Origin: Bdellovibrionia bacterium
GTDB lineage: Bacteria > Bdellovibrionota > Bdellovibrionia > Bdellovibrionales > JAGQZY01
Direction: 5' to 3'
Assembly (NCBI GenBank): GCA_030427805.1
Contig: JAUICP010000003.1
Location: forward strand, 515,758 to 579,757
DNA length: 64,000 nt
Each line of letters begins with the position of its first letter. Within the stretch, counting starts at the first letter, position 1. The translations under genes were made by a program, and so were the position numbers. The notes under the pieces are model-generated. The model made no database searches. It saw only the letters and a program-made list of their open reading frames with translations, and had not been told where the DNA came from. Shown here piece by piece: positions 2 to 16,104 of this stretch.

Positions 2-739
2 TTAGGGCGAGCTTCATATAGACTAGGAAATTATCAGCAGTCCGCCGATGCCTTTGCTCGACTCGATGAAACTCCTGAACTTCTCGAGGGTGGTCTCTTA
101 GAATATGGATTGAGTTTAGAACAACTTGGCCAGCTGGAGAAGTCCACTCAAGTTTTGTATAGAGCTCTCAGCGGAAACGAAAATAACGAGTTAGTCGTCG
201 AAAGTCTCGTTCGAGTTCTTAGCGCACAAAATAAGATGACCGATGCCATTAGCGTTATCGGAACTTACCTATTTCGATTTCCCGCCGAAGAAAAAAAGTG
301 GAAAAGTCGAGTGGATCAACTTTTTGCCGAAGCTGAAAAAACAGAGCCGCTTTACAACTCATCACAAATTTACCTGGCTGGCTTTAACAAGAAATACCAC
401 ATTCCGGTTGAGTTTCCACAAATCAGCAAGACAGAGCTCTTTCTGATTTCTTCTAAGTCAGAATTTATGACTCTGAGCACTCAGTTTGTAAAAGAAAATG
501 GATTGAAGATTTCAAGACGTCTTGGAAGAGTCAAAATGAACACTTCTATGAATAGAGAGATCATTGGGGAAAAGGTCATTCTTGGTCAAATGAGAATGGG
601 ACCTTGGCTCCTACGAAATGTTCAAGCTGTCATCTGCAAGGACTGCGCATCAGTTGTTGGCCGTTCCGTGCTAAAAACTTTTAAGACAGAAGAGTCAAAG
701 CTTTCGAATACAGATTTGATGGCTCTCAATATCCGCTAA
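2..739 (+). CDS. TPR-repeat protein, 5' end outside window
   Basis: Frame 2 is open from nt 2 (LGRASYRLGNYQQSADAFARLDETPELLEGG...) into track ORF 110..739. The N-part has TPR-like helix spacing. The C-terminal ~110 aa (YHIPVEF..LFLISSKSEFMTLS..VILGQMRMGPWLLRNVQAVIC) has a retropepsin-like strand pattern, but no DTG/DSG motif is present. Confidence 0.55.
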   Translation, partial: LGRASYRLGNYQQSADAFARLDETPELLEGGLLEYGLSLEQLGQLEKSTQVLYRALSGNENNELVVESLVRVLSAQNKMTDAISVIGTYLFRFPAEEKKWKSRVDQLFAEAEKTEPLYNSSQIYLAGFNKKYHIPVEFPQISKTELFLISSKSEFMTLSTQFVKENGLKISRRLGRVKMNTSMNREIIGEKVILGQMRMGPWLLRNVQAVICKDCASVVGRSVLKTFKTEESKLSNTDLMALNIR

Positions 740-4749: not shown

Positions 4750-5034
4750 ATGAAGACGAAACGAATCAGCTTAATGATTGGCGAAGATCAACATGAACGC
4801 CTCCTGCAATCGGGAGCTAATGTCAGTGGCCTGATTCGGGACCTCATAGAGGACCACCTCAGCGACCATAAAATCACACTTGCAGTCAGTGAAGAGACCG
4901 CAGATATCTACAATCGCATTGTTTCAAATACTGGGAGTACAGACGAAGATATTGAACCTTACCTGAAAAGAAGTCTCAAAGAGATGCTTGGCGATCGAAT
5001 CAAAGCCATGACTAAACTGCACAAATCTCTTTAG
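4750..5034 (+). CDS. ribbon-helix-helix (CopG/Arc-like) DNA-binding protein
   Basis: N-terminal KRISLMIGEDQHERLLQSGANVSGLIRDLIEDHL fits a beta-strand then helix-helix RHH pattern. GAGGG RBS lies 6 nt upstream of the ATG. Confidence 0.55.
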   Translation: MKTKRISLMIGEDQHERLLQSGANVSGLIRDLIEDHLSDHKITLAVSEETADIYNRIVSNTGSTDEDIEPYLKRSLKEMLGDRIKAMTKLHKSL

Positions 5035-5125
5035 TTATATAAGCGAGTCTTTCGACTAATCCTCCCCCATTAGAAAAATACTAATGAACATTCCAATTGA
5101 TATTCGATAAAATAGTCTAGGAACT

Positions 5126-6883
5126 ATGGATTCAAAGCGCTACATACAGCTATTAAAAAAATTTGATGGATTAGACGCGGACACTGAGGGAGAGAACACC
5201 AGGTCGTCCGTGAGCTATGCTATTCTTTCGAATTCCGAAACCAATCAACTACAGAAGTGCCTTGGCGCGAGACTCTTTGAGCAAGGTTTTCAACCAAAAC
5301 TCATCAAGACTGAATTTAACAATTTTGCAACGGATAGCCTCGACACTGAAGGAGAACTCTTTCAAAGTGATCTCGATTTTGTATTCTTCGTTTTATCTCC
5401 AATGGGACTCAAAGAAACAATTCCCAGTGAACTCAATGAGCGGAGTCAATTTGCCAGTTCTTTTTTAAGTGAACTCGAAATGTTTGTTAAAAATTTTAGC
5501 AATAAGGGTGTGAAGGTATTTTTGGCCAATATACCGGAAACCTCCGAGAGAGTTTTTGGAAACATGAGTCGGATTTACCCTGCAAGCTTTCTCTACCAAA
5601 TTCAAGCCATCAATGCCGGAATCAATAATTTGGTCGCCAAATCCCAAGGCCTCTATCTTGTCGACCTTGCCTCGAAAGCAAATTACTACGGACTCAGCGA
5701 ATGGCACGATAACGGCCTTTGGCTGCAAGGGAAGTACCCTTGCCACCCGCGCTTCTTTCCTACGATATGTGATGAGGTCTCAGCCATATTTAGTAGTCTT
5801 GTTGGAAAAATTCAAAAATGCTTAGTGCTCGACTTGGACAATACACTTTGGGGTGGCGTCGCCGGAGACGATGGAATCGATGGCGTTAAAATTGGTGATG
5901 GAATTGTCGGCGAGGCCCATGTTCAATTCCAAAAGTACGTACTCGACCTTAAAAATAGGGGTGTCGTACTTACAATTGCCAGTAAAAACTACGAAGACGT
6001 CGCCATAGATATCATCGAAAACCATCCACGAATGATTCTACGAAAAAATGATTTCGCGGTTATAAAAGCGAATTGGGAAGATAAGGCCAGCAATATTCAA
6101 GAAATTGCTGCCGAGTTAAATATTGGCTTAGACTCGCTGGTGTTTCTCGACGACAACCCTTTTGAAAGAGGGATTGTTAGAGATCATCTCCCGCAAGTCT
6201 GCGTTCCAGAGCTTCCTGAGGACCCTACTGAGTTTGTGGACTTCCTGACTCAACTCAACCTCTTTGAGACAACACAGTTTTCTGACGAGGATTTATCTCG
6301 GTCTGAATTCTACTATTCGGAATCCGAAAGAAAGAGTTTGCAAAAAAATGCGGTCGATCTAAAAAACTATTTATCGATGCTCAACATGGAAGCCTGTGTA
6401 AAGCCCATCGACGAAAAAAGTCTTCCCCGATCGGTGCAACTCTCGCAAAGAAGTAATCAGTTCAATTTAAGAACCCAAAGAATCGATGAAATGACTTGCG
6501 AAAAGTATATTAAAGAGCCCGACAAATTCTGTTTCACCGTCGACCTTACCGATAAGTATGGGGCCTTAGGCATCATTAGTTGTGTTTTCATGAGCCTAAA
6601 AAAAGATCATTTGTACATTGATGAATTTATAATGAGCTGTCGAGTTCTCAAAAGAACTGTCGAAAGTCTTATTTTTAATGAAATTCTTAACATCGCTAAA
6701 GAAAATAAAGCTAAGTTTGTCGTAGGCGAATACATACGAACCAAGAAAAACAAGCTCGTTGAAAACCTATATCAAGATTACGGCTTCGAAAACACTGAAA
6801 GAAGTGACGAAGGTAGTCTTTGGAGGATCGAAGTGAGCGGATTTTCTGATTTAGACACCAGCATAAAAGTAAAGAGGAGTTAA
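5126..6883 (+). CDS. FkbH-like HAD-IIIC family protein (carrier-protein loader)
   Basis: CLVLDLDNTLWGGVAGDDGIDGVKIG carries the HAD motif I DxDxT at aa 236-240, codons 5831..5845. ASKN and LDDNP motifs follow. The C-terminal FIMSCRVLKRTVE block is typical of the FkbH family. Its stop is 2 nt from the ACP start. Confidence 0.82.
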   Translation: MDSKRYIQLLKKFDGLDADTEGENTRSSVSYAILSNSETNQLQKCLGARLFEQGFQPKLIKTEFNNFATDSLDTEGELFQSDLDFVFFVLSPMGLKETIPSELNERSQFASSFLSELEMFVKNFSNKGVKVFLANIPETSERVFGNMSRIYPASFLYQIQAINAGINNLVAKSQGLYLVDLASKANYYGLSEWHDNGLWLQGKYPCHPRFFPTICDEVSAIFSSLVGKIQKCLVLDLDNTLWGGVAGDDGIDGVKIGDGIVGEAHVQFQKYVLDLKNRGVVLTIASKNYEDVAIDIIENHPRMILRKNDFAVIKANWEDKASNIQEIAAELNIGLDSLVFLDDNPFERGIVRDHLPQVCVPELPEDPTEFVDFLTQLNLFETTQFSDEDLSRSEFYYSESERKSLQKNAVDLKNYLSMLNMEACVKPIDEKSLPRSVQLSQRSNQFNLRTQRIDEMTCEKYIKEPDKFCFTVDLTDKYGALGIISCVFMSLKKDHLYIDEFIMSCRVLKRTVESLIFNEILNIAKENKAKFVVGEYIRTKKNKLVENLYQDYGFENTERSDEGSLWRIEVSGFSDLDTSIKVKRS

Positions 6884-6885
6884 AA

Positions 6886-7128
6886 TTGACGAAACAAGAG
6901 GTTATACAAAAGCTACAGCCTATTTTTCGAGAAGTCTTTATGGACGAATCACTCAATATTTCTGAGGACCTGACTGCCGAAAATGTCGAAGCCTGGGACT
7001 CCCTATCTCACATAGACATGATTATTCGAGTCGAAGAAGAATTTCAGATTAAGATACCAACCTTAAAGGCCGCTAGTATGAAAAATACGGGTGAGCTTAT
7101 TACTTTGATTTCAGAAAGTCAGAATTAG
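6886..7128 (+). CDS. acyl/peptidyl carrier protein (DltC/ACP-like)
   Basis: 80 aa. VEAWDSLSHIDMIIRVEEEFQIKIP contains the phosphopantetheine-attachment DSL motif (Ser39, codon 7000..7002). TTG start with AGAGGAG RBS. Confidence 0.85.
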   Translation: MTKQEVIQKLQPIFREVFMDESLNISEDLTAENVEAWDSLSHIDMIIRVEEEFQIKIPTLKAASMKNTGELITLISESQN

Positions 7129-7157: not shown

Positions 7158-7568
7158 TTATTGAGTCTCAAGCAACTCTATTAAGCCAAAACCCAAGACA
7201 TAATAAAAACTAACTGGGTTTCCCGAAAAAAGAGGAGCCGGAGTCGAATCGGAGACCATCTGATAGCGAATACCTTGCTCCTCAAAAGATTTTAAAACTC
7301 CGGCAACATCTTGAGTTTCCCAGCATGTGTGATAGATGAGGCCATCACCTCTTTTTAGAATATTATCGATTGGCGATGGATGAGTGGCTGGCCAAATCAA
7401 CTCGACCCTGGGATGCTCGACATGATCAGCCTCGCAGACAAAAACTTTTTGACTCTCATCCTCCACATCGGGTCCCAGCTTATAACCCATTTTCTCTAAG
7501 AAGAACTTAGCAGAGTCCGGTTTTTTCAATGCCAATCCAAAATGTCTAAACTTCATTAAATCGATCAC
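7158..7568 (-). CDS. VOC/glyoxalase-fold protein (epimerase-like)
   Basis: 136 aa. FRHFGLAL...VELIWP...IYHTCWE...GFGLIELLE resembles the paired beta-alpha-beta-beta-beta VOC pattern with H/E metal ligands. It overlaps the upstream methyltransferase gene by 4 nt. Confidence 0.6.
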   Translation of the reverse strand: MIDLMKFRHFGLALKKPDSAKFFLEKMGYKLGPDVEDESQKVFVCEADHVEHPRVELIWPATHPSPIDNILKRGDGLIYHTCWETQDVAGVLKSFEEQGIRYQMVSDSTPAPLFSGNPVSFYYVLGFGLIELLETQ

Positions 7569-8458
7569 TTTAAAACCATAGCAAGGTTAATAGGCAGTTG
7601 TCTCTTCTCGGAATCCTCAAGACTCGTACCTGGATGGGGAGCATAAAATTCGCGCTCAACTTCAAAACCTGCAGACTCGCAAAGACTGCGAACTTCACCG
7701 ATTGTATTGAAAAGGTAAATATGATCGACAGCCGGAGCATTGCAACAGGTCGTTATAAATACTTTTGCCCCTGGATTGGATAGCGACTTGAGCTTTTTCA
7801 GAAATTCGAGGGGTTCCTCAACATGCTCTAAAACCTCACCCATAACTAAAAAATCAAAGCCTTGATCAACTTCCATCTCTAGAAAGTTTTGTTTTTTAAC
7901 GTGAACTTCCTTATCGGTACCCAGGGAACTCACTGCCTCTTTAGTTAGACGTATACTGGTATCGCTTAAATCCACTGCTAAAAAATGTTCAAACTTTGAA
8001 TGAGAAATGGCGTAGGTAAAATGCAATCCATGGCCAGGGCCCACCTCTAAATAGGATCCCTTTCTCTCTTTGGGGAGTATCTCGGTAAAGAACTCAAACA
8101 ACTGGCGATGATTACTCCAGAGAAACTGAGTTAAAGCTAAGCCGAGCATATAAAAGTTCATATACTCATCATTAAAATAAACCGCATCGGCTACCTCGTC
8201 GAAACGGCTAAATCGATATTTCTTATTCTTTCTAAAGTAGATTTGCTCTCCAAGAGTATCATTGACGATTTTATTGTAGGACTCTGCCAACTCGGCAATC
8301 CCCCGCCCTTCGTCGAGCTTGTTTTGAATATACTCTTTAAGCATGTTTTTTTCGTCTGAGGGAATCGTCTTAAGCGACTCCTCAAGAAAACTCTTTTGCC
8401 GAGGATTTTCGCTAATGATTGTGTCTACGAGTTGCTCAATAACATCTGAAGAATTCAT
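7565..8458 (-). CDS. class I SAM-dependent methyltransferase
   Basis: YLEVGPGHG (motif I, GxGxG), AVDLS (motif II acidic residue), FDFLVMGEVLEHV (motif III region). Confidence 0.8.
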   Translation of the reverse strand: MNSSDVIEQLVDTIISENPRQKSFLEESLKTIPSDEKNMLKEYIQNKLDEGRGIAELAESYNKIVNDTLGEQIYFRKNKKYRFSRFDEVADAVYFNDEYMNFYMLGLALTQFLWSNHRQLFEFFTEILPKERKGSYLEVGPGHGLHFTYAISHSKFEHFLAVDLSDTSIRLTKEAVSSLGTDKEVHVKKQNFLEMEVDQGFDFLVMGEVLEHVEEPLEFLKKLKSLSNPGAKVFITTCCNAPAVDHIYLFNTIGEVRSLCESAGFEVEREFYAPHPGTSLEDSEKRQLPINLAMVLK

Positions 8459-8538: not shown

Positions 8539-9594
8539 ATGATATCGAGTGGGTTCAACTCAAGACGGCGATTTTTCGCTTTTATATTTATACTCATTTT
8601 GCCCTTAATCCTTCCCTGGGTAATAGAGCTACTCTACCTTGGCAACTTGAGATCCAGCTATGTTCAATTTTCAAATTTTTCCGGATCCTATAATGTCTAC
8701 CATCAAGTAATAGAGTCGCCAAAGAAGAGTCAAATTCTCATATTTGGCAATTCCGGTGGACTCTCTGCCATAGATCCAATCTACTTAGAACCTCTCTTCA
8801 AAAACGATTTAAATGAAGATGTCGAAGTAAGAAATATTTCCGTAACTGGAGATTCAGTAGCCCTTCCCTACCTCATCCTGGAAGATCTCATAAAAAAAAA
8901 CAAGAAACCCGAGTTGTTTATCTACCAGTTACCTGGCAATGAATCTCAATTCTATCATCCCTCTTCTAGGATATTATTCAAATTAACAGAGCACTACCGT
9001 CTCCTCTTGGAGGGTACAATTGACCTACAAACATTCGCTAAATTTTATGCGGTTAAAGCACTCGATTCAATGAGTGCTCTCCTCCATTTAATTCTCAATT
9101 GGGACGTCAGACTCACCAAAGAATTTATACAAGATTCGAAGACTAATAATGGAGCCAAATTCTACAAGGAAGTTCCACTCACAGAAAGCAATTACGACGT
9201 GGCCCCTAATGACCAGTATCCAGATCGTTCCCTTCTTTTTAAGGCTGCTTATAAATATACAAATGATCAACTGATTTGGTACAAGCTTCTTGAAAAATTG
9301 GCCGCAGAAAACCAGGTCCGCCTTGTTTACATGCTTTTTCCGTACAAGAGAAAAGGCTACCAAGAAAACAAATTTAACATCGCTCTCAATTTTGACTCTG
9401 TATTCAAAGAAAATATTCACCTTATGGGAATTACACGAAGTCAATTCGAATCGAGCCTTACGAAAGAGCAAATTAAAGATTTCGACGGTGATCCACACCA
9501 TTTTGGCCGAGATATTTCAATTCTACACTCTAAATGGCTTTACCCACAGATGCTACGACATCTAAAAGAGACTAGAGGCAAAAATGAAGAATAA
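8539..9594 (+). CDS. N-terminally membrane-anchored SGNH/DltD/AlgJ-like putative extracytoplasmic acyltransferase
   Basis: One N-terminal TM helix (FFAFIFILILPLILPWVIELL). ILIFGNSGG gives a GxS block with Ser72. The C-terminal FDGDPHHF gives Asp318-x-His320, like SGNH block V. It sits directly upstream of the microprotein and MBOAT genes. The fold assignment is not verified. Confidence 0.5.
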   Translation: MISSGFNSRRRFFAFIFILILPLILPWVIELLYLGNLRSSYVQFSNFSGSYNVYHQVIESPKKSQILIFGNSGGLSAIDPIYLEPLFKNDLNEDVEVRNISVTGDSVALPYLILEDLIKKNKKPELFIYQLPGNESQFYHPSSRILFKLTEHYRLLLEGTIDLQTFAKFYAVKALDSMSALLHLILNWDVRLTKEFIQDSKTNNGAKFYKEVPLTESNYDVAPNDQYPDRSLLFKAAYKYTNDQLIWYKLLEKLAAENQVRLVYMLFPYKRKGYQENKFNIALNFDSVFKENIHLMGITRSQFESSLTKEQIKDFDGDPHHFGRDISILHSKWLYPQMLRHLKETRGKNEE

Positions 9595-9715
9595 CTTTAG
9601 AATGGATCCAAAACTCTTTTTGATTCTATTGAGCCTATCGCTCATTATTCTCTTTTTACTTATGCAAATGGAACCTTACCATTTTCAACCCAAGTTCATT
9701 TACGAGAGGTTCTAA
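9584..9715 (+). CDS. DltX-like transmembrane microprotein with C-terminal FIYERF acyl-shuttle-type motif (not in ORF track)
   Basis: My translation is MKNNFRMDPKLFLILLSLSLIILFLLMQMEPYHFQPKFIYERF*. It has a basic N-terminus, one TM helix and a C-terminal hexapeptide F-I-Y-E-R-F. The ATG overlaps the upstream gene by 11 nt. The TAA at 9713..9715 directly abuts the MBOAT TTG start at 9716. Confidence 0.6.
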   Translation: MKNNFRMDPKLFLILLSLSLIILFLLMQMEPYHFQPKFIYERF

Positions 9716-10918
9716 TTGCTGAGCACTCAAACCTTCATTTATCTGGGCTTTTATGGAATTTTCTTTATTTATTTGAGGAATTTCCACCCAAAGCTTAAGA
9801 GCATCTGGTGGGCCCTCATCAACTTGAGCTTTGTTATCTTTTGCTTCTCGAATATCGTGGTCACTCAATTTGAAAACCTGCATCTCGAAATAATAACGGC
9901 CTTAATTACCGACACGAGTTTTCACATTTTCTTTTTTGTGTTGTTTATTTCTTACTTGCTCATTTGGCTCGATGAGAAGTTCAGAAAGGATTTAGGCTTA
10001 GCCTATATAGCTCCAATACTCTTTCTAGTTATTGCTAAAACCTTACCAGAGTTTGCAATCGTTGGTGCCTCATACCTCAGTTTTAGGCTCCTTTACCTGC
10101 GATATGAGATCAGACATAAAGGCACGCCATTCCCCTCGCCTTCACAGTTTATTGAGTTCACATGTTTTCCTCTGACTTTTCCCATGGGCCCTATCTCGCC
10201 ATTGAGAGATCATTTAAATAACCACGAGAAAGATGAGGTAAAAAGCTCTACTTTTAATATATTAACTCGATTCCTATCGGGCTGTCTCAAACTCTTCTAT
10301 TTGAGCTTCATCCCCCTAATGGCCAGGTACCACCTCTATCCCGAGGGGATTCACTCTATATTTGGAATTGAAGACATTCTGCTCTATGGCTTTCTTTATT
10401 ATCTATACGTTTATATTAACTTTAGTGGCGCCGCCGATGCAATTATAGCGATCTCCCAACTCGGTCGCCTGAGAGTCGCTGAAAATTTTAACAATCCTCT
10501 TTCGGCATCAAATATTCAAGATTTCTGGATGAAATGGCATATGAGTTTAACAAACATAATTAGAGAACTCGTCTTTTCACCCCTTTACCTTGTACTAAAA
10601 CGAAAGGCTCCAAAGGCCAAATGGACGGCCTTATTTATTTCGAGCCTTCTACTTTTTTTGGCCGTTGGACTCTGGCATGGCATAAGCATTCCTTTTATAT
10701 TACTAGGCATTTACCATGGAATCGGTGTTTGCTTTTACTTTTTATACAAAGATTGGGCGAGCCGAAAAATTAAATTAGCTCGTAATAAAACTTACTACAA
10801 AATTTTGGCGATCCTAATTACACAGGCCTTTGTATCTTTTAGCTTTATATTTTTTGAAGCGAGCACCAATGATTTAAAGGTTCTATTTTATCGAATCTTT
10901 CTGGGGATAGAGCTTTAG
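9716..10918 (+). CDS. MBOAT family membrane-bound O-acyltransferase (DltB/AlgI-like)
   Basis: Polytopic protein. IQDFWMKWHMSLTNIIRELVFSPLY matches FWRRWHISLS-type motifs, and AVGLWHGISIPF carries the conserved catalytic His. TTG start. Confidence 0.88.
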   Translation: MLSTQTFIYLGFYGIFFIYLRNFHPKLKSIWWALINLSFVIFCFSNIVVTQFENLHLEIITALITDTSFHIFFFVLFISYLLIWLDEKFRKDLGLAYIAPILFLVIAKTLPEFAIVGASYLSFRLLYLRYEIRHKGTPFPSPSQFIEFTCFPLTFPMGPISPLRDHLNNHEKDEVKSSTFNILTRFLSGCLKLFYLSFIPLMARYHLYPEGIHSIFGIEDILLYGFLYYLYVYINFSGAADAIIAISQLGRLRVAENFNNPLSASNIQDFWMKWHMSLTNIIRELVFSPLYLVLKRKAPKAKWTALFISSLLLFLAVGLWHGISIPFILLGIYHGIGVCFYFLYKDWASRKIKLARNKTYYKILAILITQAFVSFSFIFFEASTNDLKVLFYRIFLGIEL

Positions 10919-16027: not shown

Positions 16028-16104
16028 TGGGGCGACCGACGGGGCTTGAACCCGCGACAACCGGAATCACAATCCGGGGCTCTACCAACTGAGCTACGGC
16101 CGCC
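16028..16104 (-). tRNA. tRNA-His (GTG anticodon), CCA encoded
   Basis: The reverse complement is GGCGGCCGTAGCTCAGTTGGTAGAGCCCCGGATTGTGATTCCGGTTGTCGCGGGTTCAAGCCCCGTCGGTCGCCCCA. It shows a cloverleaf, anticodon loop TTGTGAT, T-loop TTCAAGC, and the extra 5' G(-1) opposite C73 that is diagnostic of tRNA-His. Confidence 0.95.

Follow-up and report, generated by a model that had tools for sequence, protein, structure and literature searches.

In a 64,000-nucleotide stretch of DNA from a Bdellovibrionia bacterium (assembly GCA_030427805.1, contig JAUICP010000003.1, positions 515,758 to 579,757; the whole stretch is referred to here as the window), a gene of 43 codons lies between the gene for a membrane-anchored protein of 351 residues and that for a membrane-bound O-acyltransferase (MBOAT), downstream of genes for an FkbH-family enzyme and an acyl carrier protein (ACP) (Table 1). 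This short open reading frame (ORF), first remarked upon in a reading of the sequence without database searches (the sequence-only reading), is upheld by direct reading and by the list of ORFs. It translates as MKNNFRMDPKLFLILLSLSLIILFLLMQMEPYHFQPKFIYERF (43 aa), with a basic N-terminal stretch, one predicted transmembrane (TM) helix (top 17-residue hydropathy score of 3.15) and a tail, EPYHFQPKFIYERF, that ends in FIYERF. The upstream ORF of 351 codons and the microprotein ORF share 11 nt, as the sequence-only reading had described, and its end coordinate of 9718 has to be moved to 9715, the last three nucleotides belonging to the TTG start of the MBOAT gene. If translated, the product would be a single-pass membrane protein with its N-terminus in the cytoplasm and its C-terminus outside, and the hexapeptide F38-I-Y40-E-R-F43 is predicted to be an acyl-accepting shuttle motif.

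The description of the microprotein as unannotated stands for the full 43-residue product, for which there is no database record, but not for a shorter version, which is annotated from Met7 as a protein of 37 residues (P0001; positions 863–976) in a 97.4%-identical NCBI assembly (GCA_041259675.1, here L001). Searches of 5.8 billion proteins by word index and of 1.84 billion representatives by exhaustive phmmer returned the identical 37-residue call as their sole match, and phmmer found no match to the microprotein in PDB. The 43-residue start is preferred to the annotated Met7 start because a Shine-Dalgarno (SD)-like AGAGG, which is also present in L001, stands 5 nt ahead of the ATG at 9584. 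A scan for promoters and terminators was uninformative, with fewer promoter-like sites than in shuffled sequences.

Taken by itself, the hexapeptide motif is not beyond chance. Order-2 Markov simulations of the 64-kb window (n = 100) yield 0.73 ± 0.85 ORF ends of the form F.Y..F-stop across the six frames, and one is observed. With about 0.73 such ends expected per window, it is position and conservation that carry the case. Between the window and L001, the microprotein gene shows three synonymous changes and a single conservative replacement (R6K), with proportions of non-synonymous (pN) and synonymous (pS) differences of 0.009 and 0.128. The closest MBOATs (47–48% identity) are those of an uncultured Pseudobdellovibrionaceae metagenome-assembled genome (MAG; loci L002 and L006), where the same seven-gene synteny includes a 43-residue ORF, MNKNYKSSILTLFILLGIGLIIFFMMVNMEAIYFQPKFIYQRF (MNKNYKSS...FQPKFIYQRF). 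Relative to this ortholog, many residues of the TM segment are replaced, and the final 10 residues are retained, with synonymous third-base changes. In a high-GC organism (L003) whose MBOAT is 31% identical and neighbours an AMP-ligase, an ACP, a short-chain dehydrogenase/reductase (SDR) and a homologue of the 351-residue protein (tblastn, 2.9e-5), a TM ORF ends in TFIYRNF, 1 nt ahead of the MBOAT ATG. Both the ORF and its terminal motif, for which the sequence-only reading had proposed a check of orthologous loci, are kept in orthologous and distant loci, and these comparisons confirm the ORF as a genuine, conserved gene for a predicted membrane protein of 43 residues. The combination of a TM segment with Φ-Y-x-x-F/W directly before a stop codon has 63 matches in 534 kb over both strands, 58 of which fall on the MBOAT strand. 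The opposite strand accounts for the remaining five, all of them real features (two DUF5989 microproteins and three fused MBOATs), and no match appears obviously spurious.

The position of the gene is likewise conserved. Its TAA at 9713-9715 directly abuts the in-frame TTG at 9716, as originally read, and in 24 of the 26 upstream-type loci examined (22 metagenomic loci, the window, L001, L002 and L003) the MBOAT gene starts at −1 to +5 nt relative to the stop of the microprotein, which supports the tight translational coupling that had been proposed from the window. The sharing of one frame by TAA and TTG is incidental, because the MBOAT gene of the ortholog is out of frame (in L002 and L006 the microprotein TAG overlaps the MBOAT GTG by 1 nt, TAGTG, in a different frame) and L003 has a 1-nt gap; with the genes so arranged, read-through into a single MBOAT protein, which was looked for in homologues, was not encountered. 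An SD-like element for the MBOAT, GAGAGG, lies within the codons for Glu41 and Arg42, and similar elements occupy the same place in L002 and more than 20 metagenomic loci (CAGAGG in L002; CAGGGG or GGAGGC in loci from peat), such that a purine-rich, SD-like run falls within the codons for the x-x residues of the motif in the upstream-type loci. The variable x-x residues (E-R, Q-G, G-G) may be shaped by the overlapping translational signal.

Similar arrangements extend to metagenomes. A metagenome scan returned 80 MBOAT loci, and a separate TM microprotein ending in Φ-Y-x-x-F/W was found in about 55. It lies immediately 5' of the MBOAT gene in 22 of these, with tails ending in ...DLIYQGF, ...DTVYQGF or ...GAVYGGF; in a second group it has the tail ...STFIYRGF and ends 110 nt past the MBOAT stop, and in a third, with ...VVAYQxF, it is located some 1.2 kb upstream. 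Further tails end in FRYLEW and, in one variant (L057), in AYQRY, with a terminal Y. A fused form is seen in eight metagenomic loci, where long MBOATs (469–556 aa) carry the hexapeptide at their own C-terminus (FIYFQF, FIYVRF or IVYKAF), whereas short MBOATs (375–440 aa) lack the motif and are accompanied by a microprotein. Beside the split FkbH cassette, some loci encode a second, long MBOAT with a fused motif (L022, 45–1496, plus strand; L011, L012 and L044, 10982–12490, minus strand; ends ...DIVYKAF and ...KQFVYFAF), and the split and fused forms therefore coexist in one genome neighbourhood. In L049 (1456–2388, plus strand), ...LIVDLVYQGF continues without a stop into an ORF of 310 aa; the near-identical L025 has the stop, and its absence from L049 probably reflects an error of assembly or sequencing, or a pseudogene. 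The two DUF5989 microproteins (PF19451, E = 1.2e-23; L013, 7245–7451, and L050, about 6410–6976, both on the minus strand) have a basic N-terminus, one TM helix and the ending ...APFIYTLF-stop. On either side of their gene, which lies 2.3 kb away from the FkbH-MBOAT cassette, are genes for an SxtJ-like membrane protein and for a carbamoyltransferase of the NodU/CmcH type. This protein, whose last six residues fit the same F-x-Y-x-x-F motif, might be a carbamoyl-Tyr shuttle.

The MBOAT of the window is DltB-like over its full length, as judged by sequence and by model. It matches TIGR04091 (LTA_dltB) with an E-value of 1.4e-39 and 136 bits, below the equivalog cutoff of 375, and the sequence of DltB in PDB entry 6BUG at 2.8e-21 over residues 7–387. 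An AF2 model based on 30 homologues has a predicted local distance difference test (pLDDT) score of 90.3, and its best superposition in Foldseek is on DltB (6BUG_C; TM-score of 0.78/0.76). The catalytic histidine, in W-H321-G, is invariant among the MBOAT homologues. The protein ends in ...FLGIEL and hence has no C-terminal F-x-Y-x-x-F extension, and so no terminal Tyr motif of its own. In the L001 assembly, this MBOAT has been called 47 codons short (1118–2179; 353 aa), leaving a gap of 141 nt. The 43-residue and 400-residue versions are favoured over that annotation because the homology to DltB begins at residue 7 and because of the positions of the SD-like elements. A scan of the genome collection with the MBOAT alignment returned one locus.

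The 351-residue partner is DltD-like by its position and had been labelled SGNH-like, an assignment that is plausible but unproven. In its favour, G70-x-S72 (Ser codon 8752-8754) and D318-x-x-H321 (9490-9501) are strictly invariant in an alignment of 20 homologues, and similarity to ALGX is weak (E of about 0.1) yet aligned to the corresponding catalytic regions. In hhalign comparisons, block I of the partner is weakly similar to the GDSL-like partners of related loci (E = 0.02–0.04). On the other side, no family is matched significantly, and hhalign of the partner with a true DltD reaches only E = 0.11. The profile of the partner against PDB gave nothing meaningful, and a homologue search with the protein retrieved only itself. 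A single-sequence AF2 model has a pLDDT of 39, with confidence solely for a helix at residues 5–39, and is unusable for fold search because of that score.

Upstream of the partner gene lies the loading module. The FkbH-family protein scores well above the cutoff of TIGR01686 (2.5e-87; 293 bits against 146.65) and matches Pfam FkbH_N at 1.1e-19; the features that define the family, namely a domain hit above cutoff, the HAD DxDxT motif and a DSL serine in the cognate ACP, are all found in the window. FkbH-family enzymes convert 1,3-bisphosphoglycerate into glyceryl-S-ACP, and by this analogy the acyl group would, at a little under even odds, be of the glyceryl type. No homologue of DltA or of other AMP-binding ligases is present in the 64-kb window at E ≤ 1e-3; because DltA is missing and the conserved loader is FkbH, the system is not one of D-alanylation, and D-alanine is not its acyl group. 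In 26 loci detected by tblastn with the window proteins, the genes again run in the order FkbH, ACP, partner, microprotein, MBOAT, often with a VOC gene next. The latter is a recurrent extra of the cassette: divergently oriented in the window and syntenic in L006, it is found at 4968–5390 (plus strand) in L013 and just downstream of the MBOAT gene in peat and soil loci (L027, L035 and L039–L042). Epimerisation of the acyl-ACP at C2 is one possibility for its function. The methyltransferase has orthologs in L002 and L006 (e-107) and is syntenic in Bdellovibrionota-type loci only.

Table 1. Features in and around the microprotein locus, in positions of the window
Feature	Position	Strand	Details
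Microprotein gene	9584..9715	+	43 codons, ATG 9584 to TAA 9713-9715; from direct reading and the ORF list
Basic N-terminal stretch of microprotein	residues 1-10		3 K/R, 1 D
Predicted TM helix of microprotein	residues ~11-29		
Tail of microprotein	residues 30-43		EPYHFQPKFIYERF
Hexapeptide codons, F38-I-Y40-E-R-F43	9695..9712	+	Tyr40 codon 9701-9703; same position in relatives
SD-like AGAGG	9574..9578	+	5 nt 5' of ATG 9584
SD-like GAGAGG	9704..9709	+	Glu41-Arg42 codons; 6 nt before MBOAT TTG
Membrane-anchored partner, 351 aa	8539..9594	+	Putatively SGNH-like, DltD-like by position; N-terminal TM helix
DltB-type MBOAT, 400 aa	9716..10918	+	TTG start; catalytic His321 codon 10676-10678
FkbH-family loading enzyme	5126..6883	+	FkbH_N, HAD-IIIC phosphatase domain with DLDNT, FkbH C-terminal domain
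ACP, 80 aa	6886..7128	+	WDSLSH phosphopantetheine site, Ser39 codon 7000-7002; NCBIfam ACP models, 2e-10
VOC/glyoxalase-fold protein, methylmalonyl-CoA-epimerase-like	7158..7568	-	Glyoxalase_4, 1e-11; TIGR03081, 2.9e-8, below cutoff
Class I S-adenosylmethionine (SAM)-dependent methyltransferase	7565..8458	-	Methyltransf_23, 8.8e-16
tRNA-His (GTG)	16028-16103	-	Sole RNA family match in the window

DltX of Bacillus thuringiensis, a protein of fewer than 50 residues, consists of an 11-residue N-terminus, a 22-residue TM segment and a 15-residue tail, and ends in TFIYNEF (Kamar et al., 2017; PMC5541007). The FIYNEF-like ending that the sequence-only reading had given for DltX is hence correct, and so is the role that it had given to the tyrosine: in work on the D-alanylation of teichoic acids in Firmicutes by DltX, DltB, DltC and DltD (Schultz et al., 2023, in the account of PMC12148441), the Tyr of FXYXXF is an acyl shuttle that receives D-Ala from DltC via DltB and passes it on to a serine of DltD. 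The microprotein of the window has a comparable architecture (43 vs. 48 residues, a basic N-terminus, a TM segment of about 19–22 residues, and a Tyr 11–12 residues past it and four from the end), and its FIYERF is directly followed by the stop. The resemblance to DltX is one of architecture, a six-residue motif and gene context. Since the microprotein shares size, architecture, Tyr spacing and type of partner with DltX, and since the complementarity of split and fused motifs is what the published mechanism predicts (PMC12148441), it is interpreted here, with a probability of roughly 0.78, as a DltX-type acyl-shuttle subunit of a DltB-type MBOAT in an FkbH/ACP-primed pathway.

In the proposed mechanism, FkbH would take a glyceryl-type acyl group from 1,3-bisphosphoglycerate and attach it to Ser39 of the ACP, and the VOC/epimerase-like protein and the methyltransferase would possibly tailor it further. 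The acyl-ACP would then dock at the cytoplasmic face of the MBOAT, whose His321 would transfer the acyl group through the membrane tunnel to Tyr40 of the extracytoplasmic FIYERF tail. The acyl-Tyr tail would swing over to Ser72 of the putatively SGNH-like partner, which would in turn esterify an envelope polymer. Teichoic acid is not the expected acceptor, because the host belongs to a Gram-negative-type lineage (its nearest relative being the Pseudobdellovibrionaceae MAG). The synthesis of partner, microprotein and MBOAT would be translationally coupled, through the 11-nt overlap, the abutting stop and start codons, and the SD-like element for the MBOAT inside the Glu-Arg codons.

Several observations weigh against the acyl-shuttle reading. 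A likeness to DltX at the level of sequence models did not materialise: Pfam PF12459 (DltX) and NCBIfam give no match to the microprotein at E ≤ 10, and profile hidden Markov models of 22 or 37 metagenomic microproteins do not raise the microprotein ORF above noise among the 1,431 ORFs of the window. Common descent with DltX is hence not demonstrated, because no sequence model or profile retrieves the microprotein. PF12459 is itself a weak test, the microprotein of a canonical dltABCD locus (L009) reaching only E = 3.1, and the same metagenomic profiles place B. thuringiensis DltX on top at a non-significant E of 0.3–0.8. In L009, from a Firmicute, the DltX-like ORF (5559–5843, plus strand; ...TLPTFIYNQF) lies 3' of dltD and not 5' of dltA. 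The partner has no significant match in Pfam, NCBIfam or the PDB sequences, and neither it nor its 19 homologues match PF04914 (DltD). That Tyr(−4) and Phe(−1) are invariant among the collected microproteins is partly circular, because both residues were a search criterion, and the conservation of the x-x codons may reflect the embedded SD-like element and not protein function. In a few loci with short MBOATs, no microprotein was found within the available sequence. Lastly, the glyceryl assignment is based solely on knowledge of the FkbH family.

Other explanations account for parts of these data. A structural or assembly subunit, bridging or stabilising the MBOAT and its partner with no covalently bound acyl group, would fit the report that DltX binds both DltB and DltD (PMC12148441), and a TM helix encoded by a coupled gene suits any obligate subunit. 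Such a role is unlikely, given that the constraint sits on the extracytoplasmic tail with Tyr(−4) and not on the TM helix, that the hexapeptide is a proven acyl carrier in DltX and PatA (PMC12148441), and that long MBOATs have it fused at their C-terminus. The absence of DltA or any adenylation enzyme from the 64 kb, together with an FkbH enzyme as the conserved loader, makes it more improbable still that the microprotein is the ordinary DltX of a D-alanylation operon (dlt/dra-type) in a Gram-negative, even though DltB provides the best family and structural matches of the MBOAT and a few Gram-negatives are reported to have dlt genes and DltX-like ORFs (PMC5541007); the 136 bits of the MBOAT are far under the DltB equivalog cutoff, and neither PF04914 nor PF12459 is matched.

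The conserved geometry of the junction, in the window with a weak TTG abutting the stop and an SD-like element embedded in the last codons, could also be that of a regulatory upstream ORF whose translation merely brings ribosomes to the MBOAT start and whose peptide has no function. This reading is just as improbable as that of an ordinary DltX: the motif, the TM helix and the length are kept across very different GC contents and codon usages, the features of the microprotein persist where its gene follows the MBOAT gene or sits about 1.2 kb upstream, and pN is well below pS between the window and L001. Least credible is the view that the ORF is an N-terminal helix of the MBOAT (through read-through, a sequencing error or a mis-split gene) or a chance ORF. 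The common frame of TAA and TTG and the L049 contig, without a stop after ...VYQGF, speak for the former, which is countered by the different frame of the MBOAT in the ortholog, by the retention of the TAA in the 97%-identical assembly, by homology to DltB that begins at residue 7 of the protein read from the TTG and by the superposition of the 400-residue model on full-length DltB, all of which rule it out. A chance ORF, for which the expectation of 0.73 motif ends per window could be invoked, is ruled out by conservation.

If the microprotein is indeed a DltX-type acyl shuttle, it bears on what is known of MBOAT pathways. The tyrosine-shuttle mechanism, established in 2023–2025, is of a known kind, and its split form has been described solely for D-alanylation, the fused form, with acetyl-CoA as donor, being found elsewhere; according to a 2025 paper, MBOAT pathways other than Dlt have neither a carrier protein nor a microprotein resembling DltX (PMC12148441). 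The window and some 50 related metagenomic loci would place a split, carrier-protein-dependent design outside the Dlt pathway, wired to FkbH, and would provide a counter-example to the published rule that only Dlt combines a carrier protein with a separate shuttle microprotein. Two things appear to be new: the tie to an FkbH/ACP loader, here in a lineage of the Gram-negative type, and the metagenomic breadth of the arrangement. Within the literature searched, no paper links FkbH with DltB, or with an MBOAT in an envelope context, a prior mention in Schultz et al. (2023) being possible. A broader proposal, held at somewhat less than even odds, is that these loci represent an undescribed and environmentally widespread class of envelope acylation (FkbH, ACP, SGNH-like partner, Tyr-shuttle microprotein and DltB-type MBOAT, often followed by a VOC gene), which would export a glyceryl-type hydroxyacyl group, possibly O-methylated in this organism, through the inner membrane to a polymer on the Gram-negative cell surface. 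The model hence predicts a new class of envelope modification and, if true, a new chemical decoration of the envelope. It also yields a simple rule for locating the missing microprotein next to short MBOATs, namely a TM helix, then Φ-Y-x-x-F, then a stop, and it flags annotation gaps, with the microprotein uncalled or given a wrong start and the MBOAT start mis-called in the sister genome (L001).

FkbH/ACP modules that load glyceryl groups occur in polyketide and tetronate pathways. A precedent for surface decoration of the glyceroyl type is the flagellin-glycan locus of Campylobacter jejuni, in which an FkbH-domain gene (cj1302) accompanies an 'epimerase' gene (cj1301) (PMC7099621; PMC3068675). 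The presence in the window of FkbH and ACP with a VOC/epimerase-like protein and a SAM-dependent methyltransferase recalls the gene set for the di-O-methylglyceroyl decoration of that locus (PMC7099621; PMC3068675), and the last two proteins suggest further tailoring of the acyl group. The FkbH modules of C. jejuni and of polyketide synthases (PKS), however, feed cytoplasmic nucleotide-sugar acylation or PKS extender units, and none has been reported to feed an MBOAT.

With the Dlt system, the locus shares a microprotein of fewer than 50 residues whose one TM helix lies between a basic N-terminus and a short outside tail ending in F-I-Y-x-x-F, its pairing with a short, motif-free DltB-type MBOAT, an acyl donor borne on a carrier protein and a membrane-anchored partner enzyme encoded alongside. 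It differs from Dlt in that the window lacks DltA and its ACP would be loaded by an FkbH-family enzyme, in that the microprotein gene lies between those of the partner and the MBOAT, whereas dltX lies upstream of dltA, and in that the Pfam DltX and DltD families are matched by neither the microprotein nor the partner. With the MBOAT-SGNH systems of the PatA/PatB, AlgI/AlgJ/AlgX and WssH type, it would share the logic of the hexapeptide, an acyl-Tyr being passed to a Ser-His-Asp partner (PMC12148441). Those systems draw on acetyl-CoA, use no carrier protein and, as described for PatA and AlgI, have this hexapeptide as part of the MBOAT itself, on two additional helices (PMC12148441), whereas in the window the motif resides on a separate gene product, next to a 400-residue MBOAT without it, and the putative donor is an ACP.

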